Part shown: positions 3,521 to 62,000 of the stretch, in pieces
How positions within the stretch are numbered: the stretch's first letter is position 1
Layout: every line of letters starts with the position of its first letter
NCBI GenBank assembly: GCA_012295275.1
Contig: CM022671.1
Location: forward strand, 3,472,001-3,536,000
Direction: 5' to 3'
DNA from: Chrysomallon squamiferum
Taxonomy: Eukaryota > Animalia > Mollusca
Length of the DNA: 64,000 nucleotides
Translations under genes and position numbers: made by a program
The notes under the pieces: generated by a model
Seen by the model: only the letters and a program-made list of their open reading frames with translations
Database searches by the model: none
Told to the model about the DNA's origin: nothing

Positions 3521-5364
3521 TAATTATAATTGTAATAATTTAAATAATAAATAAATAAAACAATTTTAAAAACTAAAAAACAACAATTTAATAAATTTAA
3601 AAAAATATAAATCTTACTAAATTTTACAAAAACACCTCTAATTAATCATGAAATCAAATGGAAAACTACATAAAAGTTACTATGACATTCACGTTCATCA
3701 CACTGTGATAAGTACACTTCTGCCTCATTATAATGATGACTCTTGGAAGTAGCCATAACTTCTTGTATTAGCTAATTTAAAGCACTGCACATCAATAAAT
3801 ATGTAATATCTGTCTACTGCATTCCCTCACTTACAACAGCAGGCCTGTGTATCATGCTAAGGTGCTGGCATATGAAAGGCATTGTTATATGCAATATGCT
3901 GTTATATGAAAGGTGTTGTTATATACAATATGCTTTTATATGCAAGGTGCCATTATAAGTGAAATATACTTTATTCAAGACAGCCAGATATCACTGGGAT
4001 TTCGACTGAATGGCACAAAATATGAAACTTCATTTATAAGATTTCAAACTTTCCCTTGGGTCACATCCACACACTCCTGCATTCTGCTACAAAGCCCCAC
4101 CTGGTGAGAAGAGGTACAACTACAGTGTTGAGTTGAAGGAAGACACAAAGGCCTCTCAGTTAATGAGTTATCAGATAACAAAGAAAAAGCAAAATGAGTA
4201 AATCTTGAATGTTTGGTTGATAAAGATTGTGTTTTCAGCTCACTTTCTGTCTAACATTAAATTTGTGCACTCCTAATGCAGAACAAAAAAAAACCCCTCA
4301 AAAATAAGGAAAAATTTTCATTTTCCCTCACTTACAAAGGAATGCCATCATGAGTGAAACAGATCTTTTAAAAAAATGACAATGACATGCCATTATAAGT
4401 GAGTTACATTATAAGTGAAATAAATCTTTTTCTGAAGACAAACTTCCAATGACAGTCCATTGTAAGTGAGAGTAGCATTATAAGTGAAACATTCTTTTTT
4501 TAAAAAGAATCTACATAAGTGGAGAAACACAGCAGAAGTGAAACCAAACATACAAGTCAGCTCTAATTTACTTTACATTTCCCTCAGTACAAATGAACTT
4601 AAAGTGTATCTATGATAGAATGATATATGCAACATGTATCTATACCATTTATGTTTAAATATATATTTTCTAGCAGTATAAATAACTCCAATCTATAGCA
4701 TATTGAAAGTTTTTTGTAGCGCTGCTATGAATAAATTGTCTAAATCTAAACTGAACACTTTTGAACGTACATCTTGCAGTATGAACTAATTGTCTAAATC
4801 TAAACTGTACATAAATGTACTTGTTCTAGTATAAATAAATTGTCTAAATCAATGCTGTATATTTTTCAGTGTGCCTGTGTGGTCAAATGTTGTAATATTT
4901 TACCAGACCAGAGATACAACTAATATTTGTAACACTGATAATTACACACTTCTGTCTCTAGATGATAGTAAAGGAAGATATGTTAATACAAAATAATGCA
5001 GAAAAGAGACCCACCCCACAAAAAAAAAAAAATTGATTAAACACTGAAACATCCATTTCATATTATTACCAAATGGCAAAAAAAAAAAAAAAAAATTGAT
5101 TAAACACTGAAACTAATCATATATGAACGTCTGTCTGTGTGTATGTGTGTTTCTGTTTGTGTCTAGGTATATAACCACTAACACATTCACTCTAAAGTAA
5201 TATTAATAATTAGTCTTACCTCTTTCTTCAGATCCCTGTCAGAATCTCGGATGAACGATATTACAAGCAGTTTACTGCAAAATAAAACACAAACTTTGCA
5301 TCTTTATGTCAAAAGACCTCTGTGTTACAAATATCATAAATCATATAATAAATCTTAATGTTTA

Positions 5365-7585: not shown

Positions 7586-27852
<20,267 letters not shown>

Positions 27853-28327
27853 GATTCTTGAATCCTGAGGAATTACAAATAATTATTCAAACATTTATAT
27901 TCATCCTTATCAATATTTTACCATAACCATGAAACTAATAATAAATCATGAAGTGGAATAACATTAAGCACACTATGAGGATTGATCCTGCAAACCATGG
28001 AATCTGAGGTTAGCACTGTAATTAATTTAACTGATTTGAATGCATTCAGTAATATGGCTCATATTATCTGAACAATCATATATGTCTCATTTGATCATCT
28101 TTTTTCCTCTGTTCTTTTCATAAAGCAATCTGTAATTTTCTAATAAATATAACTGAGAAGTAACCTAAATCCATGAATGATTCATACATTCTCTTAAATA
28201 TATACTTTTTAAAATAATAATAACATACATTTAAATATGATTTTCTGTTGTATTATGCGAATTGTCCCAACACAATATGCAATAAAATATTAATTTGTAG
28301 TGTAAAGATTTTGTTTATAAAACATAC

Positions 28328-28380
28328 CTTGCACACACTGGAATCGAACCCACTACTATGCCGCCATTTCACCGAGACGG
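28328..28380 (-). other. GTF3C1: Putative non-coding first exon of GTF3C1 (5' boundary uncertain)
   Basis: GC/CpG-rich patch ending in AAG|gtatgt. A matching acceptor cctcag lies just upstream of the ATG exon (exon starts at 27864). Contains the YY1-like AAATGGCGGC. Confidence 0.7.
28340..28350 (-). promoter_or_regulatory. Perfect Pol III B-box (GGTTCGATTCC) with no tRNA body: candidate extra-TFIIIC (ETC) site
   Basis: Plus-strand ggaatcgaacc is the reverse complement of GGTTCGATTCC (consensus GGTTCRANNCC). Confidence 0.7.
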
Positions 28381-28969
28381 TATTCTGTTATATATGTTTA
28401 AATGCATATAAATGAACAGCTCAAGTGAACAGAAAATATTAATTAAATTAATAGTACGATCATAAAATTTGTATGATACGAAAATGCACTATTCTAATTT
28501 AAGTTGGGGTAATTTTTTCTTCTGACCTAAAGTAAAATGAAAAGATGACATTTATGTTAATTTCGGCCATATTAAGAGAGCATCTATGTAAATTTCAACA
28601 ACATTCATATTTCAATATTTGTATTGTATTCTTTTTTTCTTGCAAAGATTTCTTTAATACTTTTTCCGTAAATCAGATTTTTTATACAACTATTTTCACG
28701 ATACTCGCTAAAAACATTCTCCATCTGAAATAAAATCTAAATTGTTTGTTTCACATGAAATGTAAAACAGTACCAACTCTGACCACATCAGAATTGGATT
28801 TACTAATTTAACAAAATATTTCTTCATGCATAAGTCAAGAACCATCGGAAAGTAAACTAGAAAATGATTAAGGGTTCTTTAGGTTTTCAAAATACAATTT
28901 ATTTCTTTATGCTTTAAATTTATGTTACATGATGGTGGAAAATACAAAACAGAACAAAAAGACAACAAA
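28380..28969. promoter_or_regulatory. Bidirectional promoter region GTF3C1 / TMEM115
   Basis: Head-to-head starts ~0.6 kb apart, with YY1-like AAATGGC at both ends and a cggaa ETS-like core near 28846. Confidence 0.7.
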
Positions 28970-31059
28970 ATGGCCACTTCCATGTCACAGCAAAAAATAT
29001 CATTTATGAAAGAACAATTATCTGCTGCTTTTGGCAAAAGCAGTGTTGTTGTGAAATTTGTAGCCATTGCAGTGACAATTGGATATTTTCTGTCTTTCCT
29101 AGAAACAGCGAAACCGTTCATTACTGTAACTCCAGGTTACGTAGTTCCTCCAAACTTCAGAATTTATTCCTTTTTCACTTACTGTTTTGTTGAATTTCAC
29201 TTTTGGGATGTTCTTATTGACATCGCTGTAGTTATATTATGTGGAAAGTTGCTGGAACCATTATGGGGTGCATTGGACATGTTAATATTTTTCCAAATTG
29301 TGAATGTTTCAGTTGGCATCCTTGCTTCGTTTTCGTATCTTTTAATTTACTTAGTAACTGTGAATGAGCAGTATCTCTTTGAAGTTTATATTCATGGATT
29401 AGCAGGCTATATAGCAGCTTTTTCAGTGGCAGTCAAGCAAGTGATGCCAGATCATATTCTTGTGGCATCGCCATTTGGAAAGTTACGCAACACACACATT
29501 CCGTTGCTTCTGTTTATAATTACAATTATTCTGCGAGTTCTTGGACTACTGCCTGGGCCGTATCCAGTCATGTTTGGTTGGGGCGTTATTGTCAGCTGGG
29601 TATACCTTCGATTTTATCAAAAACACACGAATGGAAATCGTGGAGACATGGCTGATAATTTCAGTTTTGCTAGGTATTAATACATTCATTTTACTATTTT
29701 AAAAAGTATGTTTTTATGCATTCATATTAACTGAAAAAAAAAAAATGTAATAAATAAAAGTATGCTTACAGACATATGATCAAACATGTATAAAAAGAAA
29801 CTTTATTTTTGTATTCTGTTAGTGTCACAATTTTAGAATTAGCTTATACACACCACCACTTTATAAAAGTTATATGATTATAAATAACAGTTGTCGTTCA
29901 GAATAATACATGTTAATTGTAATACCATTTATTTCAGTAAAAGGGAAAAAGCTGAATTATAACATTTTATTACCATTTATAAATTCATTATCATTACTTT
30001 AATGTAAAGTGACTTAAATGCTATAAGAGGGAATTACCTAATATATAATAAAAGAATCACTTTCAAAAAGAAAAATATTTATTACTTAAAAAATCAAATA
30101 ATGTCACAATGTGTGTGTATGTGTGCGCATGCAGGTGCATATGTACAGATTTTAGTATTTCATAATTATTTTAATTAATTTATTCTATTATTATGTATCT
30201 ATTTTTTGTATTCAGCTTCTTTCCTGGACAAGTTCAGCCATTTATCTCCATAGTTTCAAGCACAGTGTTTCTTGCATTGGTCAAAGTGAAGGTGTGTAAA
30301 AAGCCACAGAGACACTATGACGTCAGTGCACCGAGTACGATAACCATCAGCCTACCAGGCACAGACCCACAGGACGCTGAACGAAGAAGGTGAAATATGT
30401 TGTTTTTTTTTTTATGATTTAATTTATCAAACAAGTTCATATTATTATTGTTATTATTATTATTATTATTACCACTATTACTACTATGGTATGTTATGGT
30501 ATAAATGTGTTTTCAATGTAATTGATGTTACTGAAATATATGTAACATTGTTAATGTTGTATCCAGTTATAATTTACAGATGGAATGTAATTTAGACCAA
30601 TATTATCAGTAGTTTTATTTTAAATTGTTTTTCAAATAATTTTGAAAGTTAGCACTGCTAAGGTTGCATTTTATACTAATCATAGATACACAGAGTAGTG
30701 AAGTTGTTAACATAACATTTACAAATGTATAATATTTACACACCCACATATACACACCATATTTTCACAGCACCCAAAACCATTGATCTGTACTATAAAT
30801 AACTATAATTTTTATTGATTTATTTTTATTTCTGTCTTTTTTAATCAGACAACTGGCTCTGAAAGCTTTGAATGAGAGACTGAGCAAAGTGGACACACCA
30901 GCAACATGGCCATCAATGGAAGAGGAAGGAGCCACTGCTGCACAGACTGAGTCTTCTACAAACAAGACTGTACCACAGAAATCAGAAACAGCTCCCCCTG
31001 TAAAACTTCCCGTTCCAACCTTCTCAACACCTGAACAGCCAAACACAGAAAAAACATAA
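28970..31059 (+). CDS. TMEM115: Transmembrane protein 115 (Golgi rhomboid-like pseudoprotease); exons 28970-29673, 30216-30389, 30849-31059
   Basis: Motifs GKLLEPLWGALDM, AVKQVMPDH, SWVYLRFYQKH..GDMADNFSFASFFP, ITISLPGTDPQDAERRRQLALKALNERL. GT-AG junctions keep the frame. Confidence 0.95.
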
Positions 31060-37070: not shown

Positions 37071-40000
37071 TTACCAGTGTGACATATGTTTGATATATTC
37101 TTTCTGTTTTTGAATCAGCATCTGATGGACCTTTTCATACTGCTGGGACATTCTTGGTAATGGTTCCTGAGGAAAGGCATAACCAGGTTGTGGAGGAATA
37201 TAGTTGCACGTTATATCAGGCTGGACAGGATAAGTGGGGAAACTATTCTGAGGTGAATAATGAAATCGACCATGACCAGGATAAGGATTTGGCAAAGGAA
37301 GACCTGGGTGAGGTGGATAATGTACCCACTGAGAACTGAGAGTGTAGGGAGAGTTTGGATCCCACTGTTGGTAAGGATTCAGCTCTTGTTGCATGTTTTC
37401 ATATGACGGGTCTCTGAAAGGAGGGACACTCTTGAAGTAGAAGAGTTCATCTTCAGCACACAGTGACTTCTCTTCAGAACTCATCACTGGATGTTCTCCA
37501 TATGGATAGTGAACTTCAGAAAACTGGTTCTCACTGGATGGAAGTTTGCCTTGATTAATGAAACTCTCTTCTTCAGGAGAAAAGTGGTCTTGATTTTCCT
37601 GACATTGATTTTCTCCAGATGAAGTCTGATCTTGAATTTCCTGAGGAGAAAACTGTTCTGAACATTCCTGATGTGGATACTGTCCTGAATTTTCTTCATG
37701 AAGAAAATTCATCTGGATTTTGCTGAGCAGAAAGCTCATCTGCATTTTCCTGAGTAGAATACTCACTTGAATTTTCCTGATCACTATACTGATTTGAATT
37801 CTCTTGATCAGAATACTGATCAGGGTTTTGCCCATATGGATACTGAACAGGATTTTCCCCACACGGATAAATAATTGGATTTTCACCATATGGATAATGG
37901 ACTTGTCTCCTGGTAGTATTCTGTCCAGCATCAGCTGAATGACTAATCAAGTGACTAGAAAATATACCATTTGGACTGCCTTCAGTTCTGCTCACTGTTC
38001 CTCTACCATCATCTCCTGCCCGCATCAGCAGGTTGTCTTCATGGTAAGGATGTTTAGGATCAGTATATGGTCCAATGGACCAAAATGTGCTGTGACTATT
38101 CTTTTGTTCCAAATCATAAGATACTTCAGACACTTGTTCACCATTACAAGATGATCCAGGTTCATGTTTGTTCTGAAGCCTTTCTGCTTCAGCTGCATAA
38201 CTATTCTTGTAGACATCTTTCTCATACAGAGAACTGAAGCTAGAACTGGAGTCTGACTCATAACCCTCCTGACTTTCAGAGCTGTCACCAGGACAACGTT
38301 TTCCACACAGTTTTAAATTAGCAAGGTTCTGGACCATAGCGTCTGAATAAATCAAATTGTCAGTCTGTCCAGAACTTTGTTCCAAGCCAGACATAACATA
38401 CTGATTGGTCTTTGAAAATGTTACAGATACAATTTTATTCTTGTCGTAACTATCTGGATTATTTTTCATGTTTTTGTCTCTTGTTTTTCCTGGTGGTTTT
38501 AACACAGATTTTAATGCTAAATCACTTGGTGGAAGTCTCTGACTTAATGACTTGTTAGGTTCTGGTTTTTCATTGAATTCTCTGTGAAATTTATTCAGAT
38601 GTTGAGAAACCAAAGCATTTAAATCCTTGTCCTCTGTCTTCCCACTGTCAGTAATCTTAGTCTTTATCAAATCAATTAAAGAGATTTTCTCTTCTGGCAA
38701 TTTACCTTGCTGTTTAAATCTGTCCAGGCTTTCCACTGCTGAAGTATAAGTAATGTTACAGTCAACTCTTTCATAGCCAATACATTCTTGGTAAGAAGGG
38801 ATTTTCAAGACGCAGCCTGACCTGCTACTTCTTGCAGGACTATCATGCAGCGTCTTTGGTTCTGTGTGGTCTTGATCTTTTCTCCAAACCATTTCTGCTT
38901 TCTCAACTCTCCTCCAGTTTGGATCATCACTCCTCTGTTTCTTTTTCTTGTATTTGTCTTTAGAATTTTCAGTAGAATTATTTGTTAAATTATTACTGTC
39001 TTTATTCTCTTGATCATACAGTTCATCACTGATAAAGTCTGAATTATGCGAAATTTGGCCTTTAACGTTAGTGTTTTGTTTCGTTCTACATTTTAGTTTC
39101 CAATTTTCAGGAACTGAGACATCAACTCTAATTCTATTCTGTTCACTGTTACTTTTTTCTCCTGATACAAAAAGCTGATCAAAACTGTCATATCCATCAC
39201 TTTTTACATAATTCTGATCCTCATCCTCAGTTTTTCTTCCATTCAACACATTTTTCTTCAGTTTGTTTCTTCTTGATAAAGATACATCACTAGAATCATT
39301 TCTGCTGCCAACAAACAGTTCATCATCATCTTGAACTTTGTGATTAATATTTGTTTTATTTTGTTTCAGTTTTGCCCCAGCAGGCACCAGAGCACTCCGT
39401 AATGCAGTGTCAGAATGAGCTGACTTGCTGTAATTTTCATTTAGTTGGACATCATGACCCCCAGATTTATCTTTGGTTTCAGATGACTGGACATCAGCAT
39501 GAACAAAAATTTTAAAAGCTTTGTCTAAATGGACATTAGAATTAAGAGATAAATGAAATGTTTTATCTACCAGGACAGTAGGAGTAACAGAATCATCTCT
39601 GTTGTTTATAGGCACATTATCATTTGCGTTAAAATAGGCATCATATAACTGATCAGGTTCTAATTTATCACACACAGTGGCAGGCATGTCCAGTTGATTT
39701 GGATTGGGAGTCGAATCATTTGAGGGTAAGTGTATCAAAACCTCACTTTCTTGGGCACTGGAACGGTCAACTTCCTCATTGTCAACTAAAATCTGATCTT
39801 CACATTTATGGGTTTCACTTTGACTTAAATCAGGTCTTGTTATTATCTGTTCTGTAATTACAACATCTTTGGGTTTGTACGGTAAATTTATCTTCACTAA
39901 GTCAACAGGGACAGGATCTGAAATACAAAAAGCACACTACAGTTAGATGAAAGTAACAAGTGCTGTTGTCAACATTTTATGGTCAACATTTTTTGGTCAA

Positions 40001-43000
40001 CATTCTAAAAAGAAATCTTAATGCATTTAATTCCTTCTGAAGAACTCATAACTTTGATCTGCTTCTACTAAAATTCAGTGTTTGTTGTACCAAGAATCAG
40101 TGTATTTTCAACCAATTAATCAACAATTTGAAATATGCTCACCTGAAGAGAACCTCGATTGCTTGCTGAGGATAGTATTAAGGTGTGTGCAAGTATCAAG
40201 ATTTCATCCAAGCATTTTAAGGTTATAGGTTTGCCTACAGAGCAGCACTAACTGGTGATTTATTATAAGTAATTATCTGACATCCTGACTATTTTTCTAA
40301 CAGTATTGTGAGTATTGTAATTTTTTACCTGGTAATGGGTAAATCCAAGTGTTGCATTTGTATTCCAAGATTTTCAAGAGCTTTTCTTCCTCTCCATTGC
40401 TCACTAAAGTAATTGCTGCTCCAAATGAACCTAAAATAAAAATAGTATTTTATATTCAGATAAAATTCTTTTAAAAAGTACAGGTGAATAGGCCATCAGT
40501 TAATTTCATGCACAAACACACACACACACATTTGGGTAAAAAAATGGCTGCACCATGAATTTATTATTTTACTTAAAATAAAAAATTTAAAACAAATTGG
40601 GATATATACAAAATTTATGAAGTTATTGTATCATCAGTATAGTTACAAAGAAAAATCAAATAAATAAACAAAATAAGTTTGGCAAAATAAGTTTAGCAAA
40701 ATAAGTTAATGCAAACAAATAAAACAATCAGATGCTTAAAAAATTATGTAGTTTATTTGTATAATTTAATGAAAGTGAACTCACCAAATCTGCCTGCTCT
40801 TCCAATCCTGTGTAAGTAAGTTTCATGATCTTTTGGAACATCAAGATTTATAATAAGATTCACTTTCTCAGCATCAATTCCTCTTGCAGTCTACAAGGAG
40901 AAACATTACGCTCTCTCATCATACCATCAATCTGTAATTATCTAAAGTTTTATTGTCTGTCATTCCTAAAATTCTGAGATTTTTAATCAGATTAAATATT
41001 TCTAACATTTCTGAATTTCTGAATAAATATATTTCTGATTTTCTAAATTTGTTATTCATTTTATCAATATCTGTGTATGTATGTATCTAATATATGTGTA
41101 AACAATATTATAAATATTCCTTACAAGGTCAGTGGTTATCAGAACTCGACATTTGTAAGTCTTCAGTTTGGCCATTGCCTCATTTCTGTCTCTCTGGTCA
41201 AGGAAACCAGCAATACAAGCAGTCGGCCATCCCTGACTTAGCAGTTCATCAGACAGATTGTTTGCTCTGCAATAAGACTCAATAGTTTTAAAAACCTTCT
41301 TACATCTTCTGACACTTTCTGTAATTAAAAATATGTGTGTCTATCAAGATTTTAAATCTATTATTATTTTATCTTACTGGCAGCATATATTAATGTTTTT
41401 ATCCATAGTTCATATCTAGAACCAAATAAAATAACTGTACAGAAATTATACAATTATATTTTTGTCTGTAAGAAAGAAAGAAGACTAAATCACCTATTTT
41501 GTAGGTTAGAAAACACCAGACATTGCTGAAAACTGATATTAGACAGCAACTCCATCACTGCTTTTGTTTTGTTATCAAACTGCTGTTTTGCCATAGAATG
41601 GAAATCTACCATTTTGTAGTACTGCTTAATACCTAGAAGATACAATAAATTAAAATTAAAATTAAAAAAATATATATATATATAGACATTTACTTTAATT
41701 TTTGTTTATTCTGCAATGTTTTCAGCAATTATGATATATTTAGTTACATGTAGTTAGCCTTTAATAAAAATTTAATGAAATATTCTTTTAAAATCTAGAT
41801 ATTTAAAGTGTCTGGACACTTACTACTTATTAATTACAAATACATGGCTCTCTCTATATATATACATAAATTATGTCAAGATATGTAATTTTGCAAGAGT
41901 CAGTATAGGACCACTTATTCACTATTTGACACTTGAGACCCCATCAATTAGAACTCATAAATTTAATTTACAGAAGATGTATTTACCCAACAGTGCAGGA
42001 TCAGATTTACTTAATCTTATAAATGTTGGGTTTCTCATGTACTGGGTAAGATGCTGAGCTAGATATTCAGGATATGTGGCAGATAGAGCCAGCATTTGTT
42101 TGTTTTCAGGCAAAGCAGAATATATCCAGCTGAAACAACACAAATATTTTATTTTATACTCTGACATTTCAAGTATTTTTTCTACGTTATTTATGATGAT
42201 TATCACCCAACAGTTATAATAATCTGTGTTCTGCAATCAGTGGATTTTATATTCAATAACCTGAGTGTTTCTGATATGTTTACCTTTCTTTATTAAACAA
42301 AATAATTTAAATTATATTTATTTAATTTATAAAACTTACGTGGGAGTTTGAATGAATGAATTATATCATTATATTCCATATGTATAAATAACAAGAAAAT
42401 TAATGAGACCTGGAATTAAAAATGTTCAGACAATCGTATAAAATGTATCACAAATAATATAAATAGATAATCTAAATTTCTTTTTTTTTTTGCATACATC
42501 TAAGTAAAGCATTTACTTGATCTGCTCTTGAAAACTCTCCTCCAGTAGTTTGTCAGCTTCATCGAGGATAAACAGTCTAATACTTGTAGTCTTCAAGATG
42601 CCATCTTCTATTAACTGTTTAATTCTTCCTAGAAATCAAAGATGAAACAGCAAAAAATGAAACTAAAATAAGTGAAATAACAGTATAAGATTTAAATATA
42701 GACATACTCACAGCCATGTATTAATATATATATATATATTAACTGAAGTAACAATGAAACACATGCTTAAAGGCTGTGATGTGTATTTACATGTCTAAGG
42801 GTAGGTCCACATAAATGATCCTAGTTTCCAATTATATATATATGCTGTGGGTTCCTCTTCTATTATCTGTATTGTAACAGAAGAAAAAGTATTCTTCTAG
42901 TAATATAAAGGTTCTAATTTAAGGAAAATAAAAGGAAAGAAGTGATTAAGATGCAGTGTTACTTTAATATTAATAATATAATAAAAAGCAAATATATTAA

Positions 43001-49746: not shown

Positions 49747-52088
49747 TTTGGTAAAAAACAGTATTTTTATCAATATTCTTAAGAATATAATAACATGCAG
49801 TTTGTATTTGAGACATTACAGAATCAGTTGACAATAACAGCGAAATTTCTCTTTCAATGTTTTTTTCAAAAGAAACATCTTGTTTGTTCAAAACTTTTTT
49901 ATGTTGATTAACATTAATTGATATCATTAAAAATTAATTAATGTTAATTGGCATGATATATTTTTATTATTGCTGTTATCTTTAAAACAGTTAAACAACA
50001 AAGCTAACAAAATATTTTGTTTTTGAAATGTTTTTCTCCCTTTTTTTTCTGTTCTTAAGACAACCCATTACTATAAAATTTTAGTGTCCATATTAACTAA
50101 TAAAACATCTCTAACTGTTACTTTCTATTAACAAATGCATGGAGTTTTCTCATTGTCTGGTAGATTTTTAAACTTCTCAAAAATTATTATTCTTTCCAAA
50201 ATGTGTTTATTTCTTTACCAAATAGATTTAGAAATTTGGAAAATGAAAAAAAAAAAAAAAAAAAAAAAAAACAAGAACAAATACTTTTGTAATTCAGCAT
50301 TTATTTTTTATTTAAATTTTAATAATTTATAATTTTTTTTATTAATTTCATTAATTTATAAAATTAGCTTTTGTTCTTTATTGTTTTATACTAAATAATT
50401 AGTTATATTTAAATTCCTTGCACAAGGTGAGTGGGTTTCATAACTTTTAGATGTATGTGATGAACTTCTAAAATTAAAATTACTTTTTCAAGGTCCATGC
50501 TGAGATTAATGTTGGGTCAAAACACCAGACAATGCAGGGTGTGGCATTTCCTGTGTCTGAGGAAGCATGGGAAAAACTTCAACAGCTCAGAGATGGTCAA
50601 ATTTCTTATGTACAGTTGGTAAGAAAGGGGAGATAATTATATCATCCTTTTTTCATATATAGTTTTAAATTAAAGGCTTTTTTAAAATATTATTATTCTT
50701 CATGAATAAAATTAATTTAAATTACCTAATCTGATTTATTTGCATTTGCAAATATTAATAAATTAAATATATAAAGGTAAATGAAATGAGTTTTCAACAT
50801 TATGCATCTTTGGTAAATCAATTTAGCAGTGTAATAATATATGTTTGCAATATTTTAATGGATTCAAATTTGACCATTTGCTGTAAGGAACCACAAACGT
50901 AAACAAAAGAACACAATAGAAATTGCTAAGTAAGCTTGATTTAAATTTCTCAAAATTATTTTCTTCCTCTTTATCTCATTACTTATTATTATTATTGATT
51001 TATTTTGTATTTCAGAGTCTTGATCTGAAGAATGAGGTTGTGAATTTAGAAATGGCAGAAAATATTAAAGTGGGTAGTCTTCCCTCCAAGGTTCCGAAAG
51101 ACCATGCACGATACCATTTGTTTACTTTCAAACACACACACGAAGGAGACTACATGGAAAGTATAGGTAAAATATTTCGATATTAAACAGAGTTTTGTAT
51201 TTCTAATTTTATCTATAAATAACTATATCGAGGCTTGGTTAAACTAAACAGATATTTTTTATTTGCTGTAAAACACGAGAGCTAAATTTCCTATCAGTTA
51301 CATCTGTCATTAAATTAATTAATAAAGATTTATACAGTTACAGTTTTTACATTTAAAAAAAATTAATAATAGTGTTTTGGAAAGCAGTAATGGGAGATCA
51401 CTCTATTTGTGCTAAATCTACATTACACAATGACAGTTATTCTTATTACTGTTACTCTAAATGTTTTTACTGCACTGTTTTCTTTTTTTCTTTATGGTCA
51501 TCTCTGTAACTGTTAGAGGTTAAGAGAAATATCTGTTTTATTGCAGTGTTCATCTATTCAATGCCTGGTTATAAGTGTTCAGTTAAAGAGAGGATGCTGT
51601 ATTCCAGCTGTAAAGCACCATTAACCTCAGCAATAGAACAAGAGTTAGGAATAGAAATTGCAAAAAAGGTACAATTTGATTTTCCAAAAATTATTATTAT
51701 TTTATTAGTATTATTGTTTTTATTATCGATTAGTCTCCACAATATTTTATCTTTCTGCACCCGTCATTCTCTTAATAATTTTTAATCACTTTTATAAAGA
51801 TCTTTATTTCTATGCCTTTCTTTCAAATAAGAATATTTTTTTCTGCAATTAAAAATATATTGATTTACCTAATAAAAGTATCAGTCTGGTGTAGATAAAT
51901 TCTGGTATTTATTACTTTATTTACAGATTGAAATAGATGATGGTAAAGAATTAACAGAAAAATTTCTAGATGAAGAAATTCACCCAAGAAAAAACGTTGC
52001 TCGTCAAGCGTTTGCTAAACCTAAAGGACCTTCTAACCGAGGTCCACGCAGGATACACAAAGGAGGACAGGAAACAGATCATTCTTAA
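44835..52088 (+). CDS. TWF1: Twinfilin (two ADF-H domains); exons 44835-44859, 45541-45618, 45976-46026, 47038-47165, 47653-47748, 48278-48382, 50493-50618, 51016-51166, 51547-51668, 51927-52088
   Basis: MSHQTGI start, [61 protein letters not shown] and C-tail [14 protein letters not shown]. The frame is continuous over all junctions. Confidence 0.96.
46027..47037 (+). other. U12-type (minor spliceosome) AT-AC intron in twinfilin
   Basis: 5' end ATATCCTTTT, branch point TTGCTTAAC at 47021-47029, 3' end CAC. Removal joins GAG AAA G|AT TAT GAC (WEKDYD) in frame. Confidence 0.93.
49205..49225 (+). CDS. Candidate 21-nt in-frame alternative microexon of twinfilin (EAMLRDL)
   Basis: ttttgtttatcag|GAAGCTATGTTGCGGGATTTG|gtaaaa inside a phase-0 intron. 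Confidence 0.5.
49687..49743. repeat. (GT)n microsatellite
   Basis: Directly visible. Confidence 0.95.
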
Positions 52089-57610: not shown

Positions 57611-58247
57611 TGTCTTTTTGTCTTCGAATCGTTTCCGTTTTAAATATTAATAATGTGACACTACTCCAAAACCTGTATACGTCCATATTTTTGTCATAAC
57701 TTGATCACTATTCATCGTTGTGAATGCTTGGTAGTATAGTTTGACTGTATTTACAACAGCCTTTGCTAAAAAAATTAAATTGACGAACTCGAAATTTTTT
57801 TTCTTCGAAATTTAACGAAAAAAACTATTACATTATTTTTAAGAAATACTGCAAATAATAACAACAACAACAACAAAACAACAAATTTAAATAAAACAAT
57901 AATAATAATAAACTACAAAACAACAAAAACAACTACTACTTAACGAAATGTAAAGCATAGAGACATGATTATGCTGTTATTAAATTCTTAATTTTCTAGG
58001 GACAAAACAACAACAACAAAAAAATATTAAATTAATTACTAATTAGTTATATACATAATTTTTTACTTTCATAATAAAGTTTTTGGCTATTTTATTTAAA
58101 TACATATATTTTTAAAATGTTCGTTCTCTCATAAAAACAAATAAACAACAGAAGAAAGAATAATAAAATATTTAAAATTAAAACACGTCAGTGGCTGCGG
58201 TGTCGTTTAAATTAGGGAGGAAAAAAGGAAGCAAAAGAAGAATCAAC

Positions 58248-58972
58248 ATGGAGGAGGAATCGACAGATGAATCGGGAATTCTGAACAAAAATTCGGAAGA
58301 TGGAATGCACAATTCCTTGCTACCTTGGGACTTATTTTCAAACTGGTTACATTGTGCCTGTGTTGTCACATTTGATCTTGAGCTCGGTCAAGCGATGGAG
58401 GTAAATGATATATTTTATGTATTGTTTAAAACAAAGTTAGTAACGAATGTAAATCTACTAAATGTTTAGATTAGTCGATCTCCGAATTACTGCAATCAGT
58501 CACCGAAATCGTATCAAAAAAATAAAATAAATACAAAATAAAAAATTAAAATAAAAAATGTATTAAAAGTAGTCATTAATTGTTTAGATCTGCGATACTG
58601 CCAGTATTTTTGAAGATAGAAAATCGAATAGATAGCAGAATTATTCAGTAGGTAGAATACACACTACACAGCACAGATTCTTTAATTTTACGTTTTCGGC
58701 TTAATCACAGTGACATACAAATCTGAAGCTTTGGTATAAAAATGAATAATTATTGTAATTTTTTAAATAAAAGTTGAAAATTCTTTAAAAAGTTTATATT
58801 GTACAAAACTATATTTTGAATATACATTAACAACCATCAATTTTTTGTTTTATGACAATGTTATTATTTTTATTAATATTATTATAAATCATAATGGTGA
58901 TCAGATATTCACTTTTTAATATGCCATTAGTTTCAATTTCAAATCTATACAGGATTTTGCAGTATGTATGTA

Positions 58973-59013
<41 letters not shown>

Positions 59014-62000
59014 TACTTTTCATTTAACACATACCATTATTTGTTTTCAGCTAATATATCCTAGCCATGTTAAACTTACAGAAAAAGAGGTATGTGTGAG
59101 TGTAGATATAGATAGACTGATAGATAGAACCCTGTAATACTTAATGAATATATTTTCATTTCTTTTTAAAAATGTAATATTTATTTATTTATTTATTTAT
59201 TTATTTATTAGTTATTATTATTATTATTATTATTATTTTATTATACTTTTATATAAAAAACATTTTTTAAGTTTGCTACATATAAAAATTTTGTGTACAT
59301 TTATCAGATTTGTTTTACTTCTGTGAATGTTAATTTTTAACTATGCATCATAATTAAAGTTTATAATACTTCTAAATGACAGTGATTAAGTCTTAAAATG
59401 AGATTTTGATGTCAGATTATTATTTTTAGTGTTTTGTATATGCACACTCTCAGGTTTCAGATATAGACTGAAGAATATTAGGAACACTGTTTACTTTTAA
59501 CTTAATTTTAACTGAAGCATTACAGTGTCAGAGTTGTATTGTAAACTGTTGACTTTAAGATCAGGTACATAATTAGATTAAGTACATAATTAGGTTAAGA
59601 ATTTGATTGTTTTTAAGCAACAGATTAATCATATTTGTAGCTTCTGTTGAGTCATTACTGATATACTGTAATTATATGTTTTTAAAGTTTATTTAATTTT
59701 TGTTTTAATATTTTTATAATTAGCATCAAGTAATTTTAGCATTAGATTTAATGGCAAATAACCTGATCAAGGCTAAATTTGATAGTTTGTGCTTGTTGAC
59801 ATTGTCTGGTTTCCAGTACTTTCAAATACACAATCACTTTCATAAGACTTATTATTTTTTTCAGAAAACAAACATTTGTTACTTGTCTTTTCCAGATTCA
59901 AATTCAGGTAAGTTTAAAAACATTTCAGGTGATTTCTGAAGTAAACAAGTATGTTTTTGATTAACATTATTAGTTTTATATTAAGTATTATTATAACCTG
60001 TGTTCAAAAAATTATTTATTTACATTTTTGAATTGTTTCTTATAAATATTCCACAAAATATATTTCAATCTGTTATTTATAATATTTTATGATGAAATAC
60101 TTTATTTTAAAAAGCATATTAAAAGAATACAAATGACTGCAATAAGAAATGTGTTTACATTATATTTTTCAGGATGTATGGGTGATACACACTTTCATTT
60201 TAGAATTCGCCAATGTCCTGGTCGCAGACAAACAATTCCTGCTCATTTCCAGTACAATCGAGACTGCCCAGTGTCTCTCCAGGTAGACTTAACTCAACTC
60301 ATTTGCCATTTTTCTTTGTAAATACAGTCCAATGAAATAAAAATGAAATCACAAAAACTACATTTTGTTTCACTGATACAGTAAGACGTGTTCACAACAA
60401 TAATCACTGTACAGTACGTTTTGAGATGAGAAGATCAGTGAGTGAATTGAATATTTGAAAACGGGTTCAAGTTGATGTCTTATGGAATTAGATAATCATA
60501 AAGTGATTACAATTTCTTTTTAAGTCAGTAATTTAACAAACTGATACAGAAGCTGGTACAGTGTTAAGATTTCTTTTGTGATTGTTATCTTAAAATGTTT
60601 GTCTTGATGTAACTGTGTTTGTTGTTACAGCTAATATCACAGGTGATAAATATATTTTTTATTTTTACAGACTGACAATGCTCATTACTATGGATTTGTA
60701 TATTTTCGTCAAACCAAAGATCGGTCAATACGTAGAGGATATTTTCAGAAGGTTTGTATTTTATTTCAAGTGTGTAAGTTATTTTCAGTGTCTGAAAAAT
60801 ATTTGGTTGGTAAATATTCATTTACTAACTGTATGACTGTGTTCAACCCAATTAACTTTGCAGACAAATTTTTCAATACAAAGTATATAGCATGCAGGAA
60901 TCACTTCAAGAGTGAAAGGTTTTCTTTCTAGCAGGTTCTCTATTTTTTTTCTATGCTTCCAGTTCTTTGTGGACATAGTTTATTAATTTTTAACATTTTT
61001 TTTTTTGGCAGTTTTAAAGAATGTTTGCTTTCAAAAAGAACAAATTTCATTCAGTACTAATTTTAAAAATTCTTATAGTATGTTATTTTTCATTTATTTC
61101 AAACAGTAAATTCAGTGTGGAATAATATGAACTTTATATCATGTGATGAAATGATTAAAAAGTTTCAATCAGTATGTTTCAATAAGCATATTTTATATAC
61201 ACAAAGCTATACGTGTATGTTTTTGAACAGAGTGAATATTGTTGGTGTGGCTGCTATATACATTATTTGAAATTGCACTTATCAAAAATCACTGTTATTA
61301 TAAAAAATAAATGCACAATATATTATAAGTTTCACAATTTTGCTGCTTGTTTCTTTCTAAATGTGCAATATTTGATATTAATCAGCAGCTTGCAGCTTAC
61401 ATCCACAGTAAAAGGTGTTCTTTACTAGTGCTAGATGGACTGTCTATTATTCCAACTCTTGATTCATAACAGTTTTATGTCAAACCTGCATACCTGTTTC
61501 TGAGAATGTGTTTATAAGGGATCACAAGCAGTTAAGGAGATCATTCTCTATACCAAAATAAATGATTAACATATTATAACCATTAATAACAAAATATGTT
61601 AAAATTTCATTATTTTAATCAATAATGAATATTTAACACCTATTGTTATTTATATTTTCACACCTGTTCTCACTTACCTGTGTTTACTGTTTCAGTCTGT
61701 GGTGCTGATTTCTCGCCTGCCTTTCATCTCACTCTTCACACAGCTAGTCAGTATTATTGCTCCTGAGTACTTCGACAATGGAGAACCTAGTCTTGAAGCT
61801 GGTGAGACTGACATTTATTAGTCCAAATAATTTAATCATTTCTGAAGTAAACAAACACATATATACAAACATCACATGATATGCATAGATGGATCATTCT
61901 GCAAAACTGTATATAAATCATACCTTATAGAGTATTAAAAGTGCCATAAAGACAAACAGTATTAATTGTTTAATTAAAAAAGAATCACTATGCAAATATG

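Follow-up and report, generated by a model that had tools for sequence, protein, structure and literature searches.

The gene coding for GTF3C1, the TFIIIC subunit that binds B-boxes, carries a consensus B-box in its own non-coding first exon in the snail DNA analyzed here (the window, a single stretch of 64 kb). Our preferred reading, which we hold with about as much doubt as belief and which draws on sequence and analogy, is that this box would be a retained, probably tRNA-derived TFIIIC site giving weak negative feedback on GTF3C1. The principle is already known from ETC6 of the yeast gene TFC6 and from the mammalian MIR in Polr3e; the animal GTF3C1 case is new to the literature that we found.

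A B-box in the first exon of GTF3C1

An earlier note, made from the letters of the window, had named the host gene as GTF3C1. We found the Pfam domains B-block_TFIIIC and eWH_GTF3C1 above cut-off (WH_GTF3C1_N was below it, with E 1e-4) and a match of the exons to human GTF3C1 (PDB 8cli_A, E 1e-8), so the assignment stands. Protein trees place the gene among the molluscs, beside Haliotis, as a gastropod. The joint between exons 1 and 2 (28328 to 27864) is present in contigs of all three RNA runs (X1, X2 and X4, all from one study), the joint between exons 2 and 3 (27801 to 27534) was also found in RNA contigs, and both introns are GT-AG. The exons beyond exon 3 have protein homology as their basis. 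A DNA run (X5) holds short pieces of 18-25 nt and nothing more.

Contigs cannot show the start site; their upstream ends lie at 28391, 28519 and 28541, so that 41 to at least 191 nt of transcript precede the B-box. With this much RNA ahead of it, the box belongs to the transcribed 5' UTR and is not outside the transcript start. After splicing, the long frame begins with the ATG at 27852 in exon 2 and has an in-frame stop ahead of it, so that exon 1 is non-coding 5' UTR, which rules out coding constraint as the cause of the box. The features of the region are the following.

28328..28541, minus: GTF3C1 exon 1, 5' UTR (RNA contig joints and translation; the upstream end is that of the longest contig)
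28340..28350, minus: B-box GGTTCGATTCC in the non-coding exon 1 (motif scan, Markov models)
28332..28357, minus: the B-box with its flanks, 7 nt upstream and 8 nt downstream (11 of the 15 flank bases as in the L028 site described below)
28356..28367, minus: upstream ORF of three codons (M-A-A-stop), 5 nt upstream of the B-box (translation)
27865..28327, minus: intron 1, 463 nt, GT-AG, containing GATCAATCC (RNA joints)
27801..27864, minus: exon 2, with the start codon at 27852 (MDFMSDVVEEIALEGLDG) (RNA joints, translation)
27326..27534, minus: exon 3, coding for the first winged-helix domain (RNA contigs, Pfam, PDB match)
28957..29674, plus: exon 1 of the divergent gene, matching Pfam DUF1751 (RNA contigs begin at 28957-28964)

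The minus-strand GGTTCGATTCC is the sole strict B-box in the 64-kb window, and 12 bases (28339-28328) lie between it and the donor GT at 28327, the first of the gene; the position that the earlier note had reported was thus recovered by motif scan and RNA contigs alike. Both GGTTCGANNCC and GGTTCGANNC have a single match in the 64 kb, and a shuffle control gave a match in one of 100 shuffles. For the 1,170-bp 5' region, from exon 2 to the start of the divergent gene, Markov models give an expectation of 0.0002-0.0007 for GGTTCGANNCC, 0.005-0.012 for RGTTCRANNCC and 0.17-0.39 for GWTCRANNC. With an expectation below 0.001, the box is far above chance at GTF3C1. A second, weaker match had been pointed out in intron 1, GATCAATCC (27979-27987). 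It is real but at chance level, one of the 16 GWTCRANNC matches in the window against 9-22 expected, and since the loose pattern occurs that often we give it no weight and reject it as a chance match.

The divergent gene we take to be TMEM115-like, and its 5' end is ~600 bp from the B-box. Insulation of this neighbour, also raised before, is unlikely on geometry, because the box is part of the GTF3C1 transcript and not between the two starts. The longer 5' UTR has two further upstream ATGs, at 28407 and 28463. Overlapping the start of the short upstream ORF there is ATGGCGGC (within 28356-28369, minus), presumably a YY1-like motif. Run X4 differs at 27359, 27410 and 27437 in exon 3, probably as alleles.

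Tests for tRNA, A-box and repeats

No tRNA was detected by ARAGORN in the 64-kb window, Rfam gave nothing real there (a tmRNA T-loop match with E 3.5 and, elsewhere, a microRNA match with E 0.22) and blastn found no second copy of the B-box segment within the window. Beyond 13 nt upstream of the box, no A-box with fewer than two mismatches was found, and hence none at tRNA spacing; one-mismatch A-box-like words are confined to 2-13 nt from it. Within the window, then, the box has neither cloverleaf nor spaced A-box, as had been stated before, and no dispersed copy that would point to a SINE was seen in these 64 kb. We rejected a reading of the box as RNA structure, given a T-stem with just two Watson-Crick pairs and the tmRNA score above. 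Abutting the box, TAGTAGTGG (28350-28358, minus) resembles the 3' end of an A-box and, as pure speculation, the two could be a collapsed A+B element.

GTF3C1 loci of other animals

A profile built on 32 GTF3C1 N-termini yielded 29 loci from metagenome contigs, and removal of seven near-duplicates (L002, L005, L010, L013-L016) left 22 non-redundant animal loci, with no gastropod among these other animals. The GTDB and viral collections gave no GTF3C1 locus, and a homologue search with exon 3 of the window gave no match. In two of the 22 loci, L027 and L028, a sense-strand B-box was found shortly upstream of the GTF3C1 ATG, 316 and 154 nt, respectively, upstream of the codons for EVALEG. Specifically, GGTTCGANNC has two sense matches in 12,645 nt of upstream sequence and no antisense one, versus one in 224,792 strand-nt elsewhere in the 22 loci (p=0.0074). 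Four looser patterns gave upstream enrichment with p=0.045 to 0.13.

In the other 20 loci (14 arthropod-like, one fish, L004, two bivalve-like, L026 and the annelid-like L024) no strict sense B-box was found within 700 nt upstream, a soft absence given unmapped first exons and, in some cases, short contigs; the bivalve-like loci have 97 and 1,145 nt of upstream sequence (the latter is L021). One-mismatch sites are located at -1877 in L009, at -49 in L025 and, antisense, at -1747 in L026. On these sequences the B-box is clearly not universal near the GTF3C1 ATG, and the conservation across bilaterians that the earlier note wanted checked is partial, with the strict enrichment on one side and the 20 loci without a strict match on the other.

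Ahead of the L027 and L028 boxes, A-box-like words (CAGCCCAGTGG and TGGCTCAATGG) end 32-33 nt upstream, and the spacing of an A+B type-2 promoter, which fails in the window, is present in both. Nine RGTTCRANNC sites were listed across the 29 loci; these two, both ahead of GTF3C1, have an A-box at tRNA spacing, and the same regex found none at the other seven. At relaxed settings no tRNA fold was obtained at either B-box. The earlier description of a lone box that is not a tRNA remnant therefore holds for the snail window but not for these two loci, whose A-boxes make a tRNA-derived origin likely.

In the trees L027 and L028 come out as sisters (96-98 SH-aLRT), deeply split and with end branches of 0.5-0.6, and as such they may count as one event. 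Both fall outside the mollusc clade (99 SH-aLRT), their grouping with gastropods being rejected (AU p=0.004), and in a weakly supported spiralian group of a tree without cnidarian or sponge reference. When the alignment was anchored on the box, the flanks of the window and L028 were identical at 11 of 15 positions, the best of 34 other B-box-like sites (the next had 8); the 15-base span was picked after the data were seen, and wider spans gave 12/20 and 16/30 (p ~0.002). Window and L027 flanks agree at 7/15, which is not significant. In unanchored alignment of the upstream regions of window and L028 the box was the best match, not above shuffles (47/200; 2/100 with exon 1 alone), and nothing was found between L027 and L028 (90/200 shuffles) or between window and L027 (30/200). 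The B-boxes of the snail and the L027/L028 lineages may be homologous. A donor-like GT follows the box after 14 nt in L027 and after 1 nt in L028. We put no weight on these as a snail-like layout, as donor-like sites are frequent there (7 and 4 in those regions).

L027 has a divergent gene as well (762-977, minus), ~640 nt from the GTF3C1 ATG, with no match in Pfam, homologue or Atlas searches; we assume it to be ATP23-like. An extra intron in winged-helix 1 was seen in L027 (1950-2115) and L028 (906-1011) and is missing in the window, L020, L021, L024 and L026.

Comparison with known systems

ETC6 is located in the TFC6 promoter of S. cerevisiae (Kleinschmidt et al. 2011, as presented in PMC3334521, PMC3395662 and PMC4228148). 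In yeast a B-box suffices for TFIIIC binding and lost ETC6 binding doubles TFC6 RNA, and the commentary reporting this raised autoregulation of other TFIIIC subunits as a question (PMC3334521). The snail box is similar in being a tRNA-less B-box where a gene for a TFIIIC subunit has its 5' end, with a divergent neighbour and a proposed negative feedback. However, the snail gene is that of the largest subunit (GTF3C1, orthologue of Tfc3) and not of Tfc6, it belongs to an animal, its box is inside a spliced 5' UTR whereas ETC6 is upstream in the promoter, and the function of the snail site is a putative one.

In mammals, a tRNA-derived MIR located within intron 1 of Polr3e is a roadblock that lowers the protein 1.5-fold, with feedback proposed by the authors (PMC5358760). 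The likeness is that of a tRNA-derived (in the snail, probably) Pol III promoter element near the 5' end of a Pol III-machinery gene in an animal, although the reduction of output is only proposed for the snail. The MIR is antisense, intronic, provided with A and B boxes, transcribed by Pol III and placed in a polymerase subunit gene, whereas the snail element is sense, exonic and a B-box alone.

ETC sites of human, mouse, Drosophila and C. elegans have been described (PMC12409998, PMC4226948, PMC6950938). Like them, the snail B-box is outside a tRNA gene, and it has several sequence traits of such a site: a B-box with the bases read by TFIIIC220, no tRNA gene and no spaced A-box. The animal ETC sites are defined by ChIP, unlike the snail box, a candidate found by its sequence, and they are discussed as architectural; their exact role is described as undetermined (PMC12409998). 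The accessible parts of these three papers have no mention of a site at the GTF3C1 gene itself, nor do those of C. elegans TFIIIC papers (by term search) and of a Drosophila mapping paper. In the literature searched, with most subscription papers and supplementary peak lists outside its scope, no report of autoregulation or of a B-box at an animal GTF3C1 was found, which agrees with the earlier note, whose author knew of none for an invertebrate.

In human tauB the winged helices of TFIIIC220 read the B-box (G66, T68, C69, G70, G74) and TFIIIC110 holds the downstream DNA (bioRxiv 10.1101/2023.05.16.540835). The contacted bases G66, T68, C69 and G70 and the G74 partner are all present in the window, L027 and L028. 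As reference for the 10-base 3' extension of the yeast sites we used G19, G22 and C23, common to 8/8 yeast 23-mers and hand-read from a table. The window is a partial match, with G19 present and the GC one base early; L028 has all three bases and L027 C23 alone.

Possible feedback and alternative explanations

Under the feedback reading, free TFIIIC would bind the exon-1 B-box and thereby exert a weak repression on the gene of the very subunit with which it recognizes such boxes. The ancestral site would have been a tRNA-like A+B element, of which the snail lineage kept the B-box alone. Since no A-box is properly placed in the window, the tauB module is predicted to occupy the box without recruiting Pol III. 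With the site lying 41-191 nt into the transcript, bound TFIIIC would be expected to hinder Pol II initiation or early elongation, and the size of the repression would probably be ~1.5- to 2-fold, by analogy with ETC6/TFC6 and the Polr3e MIR. A broader proposal seems possible to us, if doubtful: GTF3C1 may have had a TFIIIC-sensing 5' B-box from early animal evolution onwards, or from before it, forming a homeostatic loop that would set the levels of Pol III factors. One spiralian-like lineage would have kept the A+B element in full and gastropods a lone exonic box, and arthropods would have lost it.

If the feedback were true, one animal ETC-type site would have a gene-specific job, and it would suggest repeated recruitment of tRNA-like promoter pieces for feedback by the Pol III machinery (TFC6, Polr3e, GTF3C1). 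It bears on the self-limitation of TFIIIC outside budding yeast and at subunits besides Tfc6. A single defined site in exon 1 of the gene for the DNA-binding subunit offers a one-base test in an animal.

The box could also be a neutral relic, without function, of a tRNA gene or the head of a tRNA-derived SINE in the 5' UTR, which we judge unlikely. The upstream flank keeps a G-T six to seven bases before TTC, which we take to be tRNA-like positions (tRNA numbering), the layouts at L027 and L028 look like decayed tRNAs, L024, L026 and L012 have SINE-like heads with B-boxes, and most orthologous loci miss the box. Nevertheless, a perfect box whose A-box, stems and body have disappeared does not have the look of uniform decay; moreover, a second copy is absent from the 64 kb, and in a second lineage the box is again found on this strand and at this place.

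Insulator activity and a frequent location between divergent genes are described for ETC sites (PMC3395662, PMC12409998), and L027 has a divergent neighbour too. That the box is a genuine TFIIIC site which serves architecture and gives no feedback (boundary, nucleosome positioning or start-site fidelity at the GTF3C1/TMEM115 divergent promoter) is nonetheless rather improbable in our judgement, given the position of the box within the transcript; it would leave unexplained that the sole strict box in 64 kb is at a TFIIIC gene and recurs beside the different neighbour of L027.

We consider very unlikely a nested Pol III unit that interferes with Pol II like the MIR in Polr3e. Pol II can be blocked by Pol III units in sense orientation as well (PMC5358760), L027 and L028 have A+B at tRNA spacing with T4 runs 48-64 nt downstream, and in the window a T4 run lies 18 nt downstream of the box. 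But an A-box at workable spacing is missing from the snail site and T runs are common in DNA of 27% GC; L027 and L028 suit such a unit better than the window does.

Finally, that the 11-mer arose by chance in a first exon rich in G+C and retaining CpG (38% GC and 4 CpG in the 100 bp around the box) is extremely improbable, for although the scan covers ~250,000 windows and readers seek such coincidences, the strict and RGTTCRANNCC expectations per GTF3C1 5' region are the small ones given above and the box recurs in other animals.

Other observations

TRNA-derived SINE-like heads with B-box-like words were seen by eye near or inside GTF3C1 in L024 (~5180-5290, minus), L026 (2300-2360, minus) and L012 (~7824, plus). 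L017 has two inverted AGTTCGA B-box-like words ~18 nt apart at 9376-9414, 3.3 kb into the gene. Local alignments of exon 1 to L006, L024 and L009 had high scores and were discarded as A+T-rich matches. Two proteins are probably annotation fusions: the pseudoscorpion GTF3C1 P0002 (3,185 aa) contains two copies of its N-terminal domain, and in the sea-spider P0180 ribosomal protein P0 is joined to GTF3C1.

Elsewhere in the window, exons of a further gene with no Pfam match, presumably DENND6-like, are located at 58182-60931 (plus), and a Cofilin_ADF exon that we take to be twinfilin-like at 51510-51782 (plus). At 37071-42236 (minus) a helicase gene (Helicase_C), presumably DDX20-like, stands beside an open frame of 746 codons, which ends in short repeated units rich in Q/N/P/Y/S and is overlapped by a frame of 291 codons.
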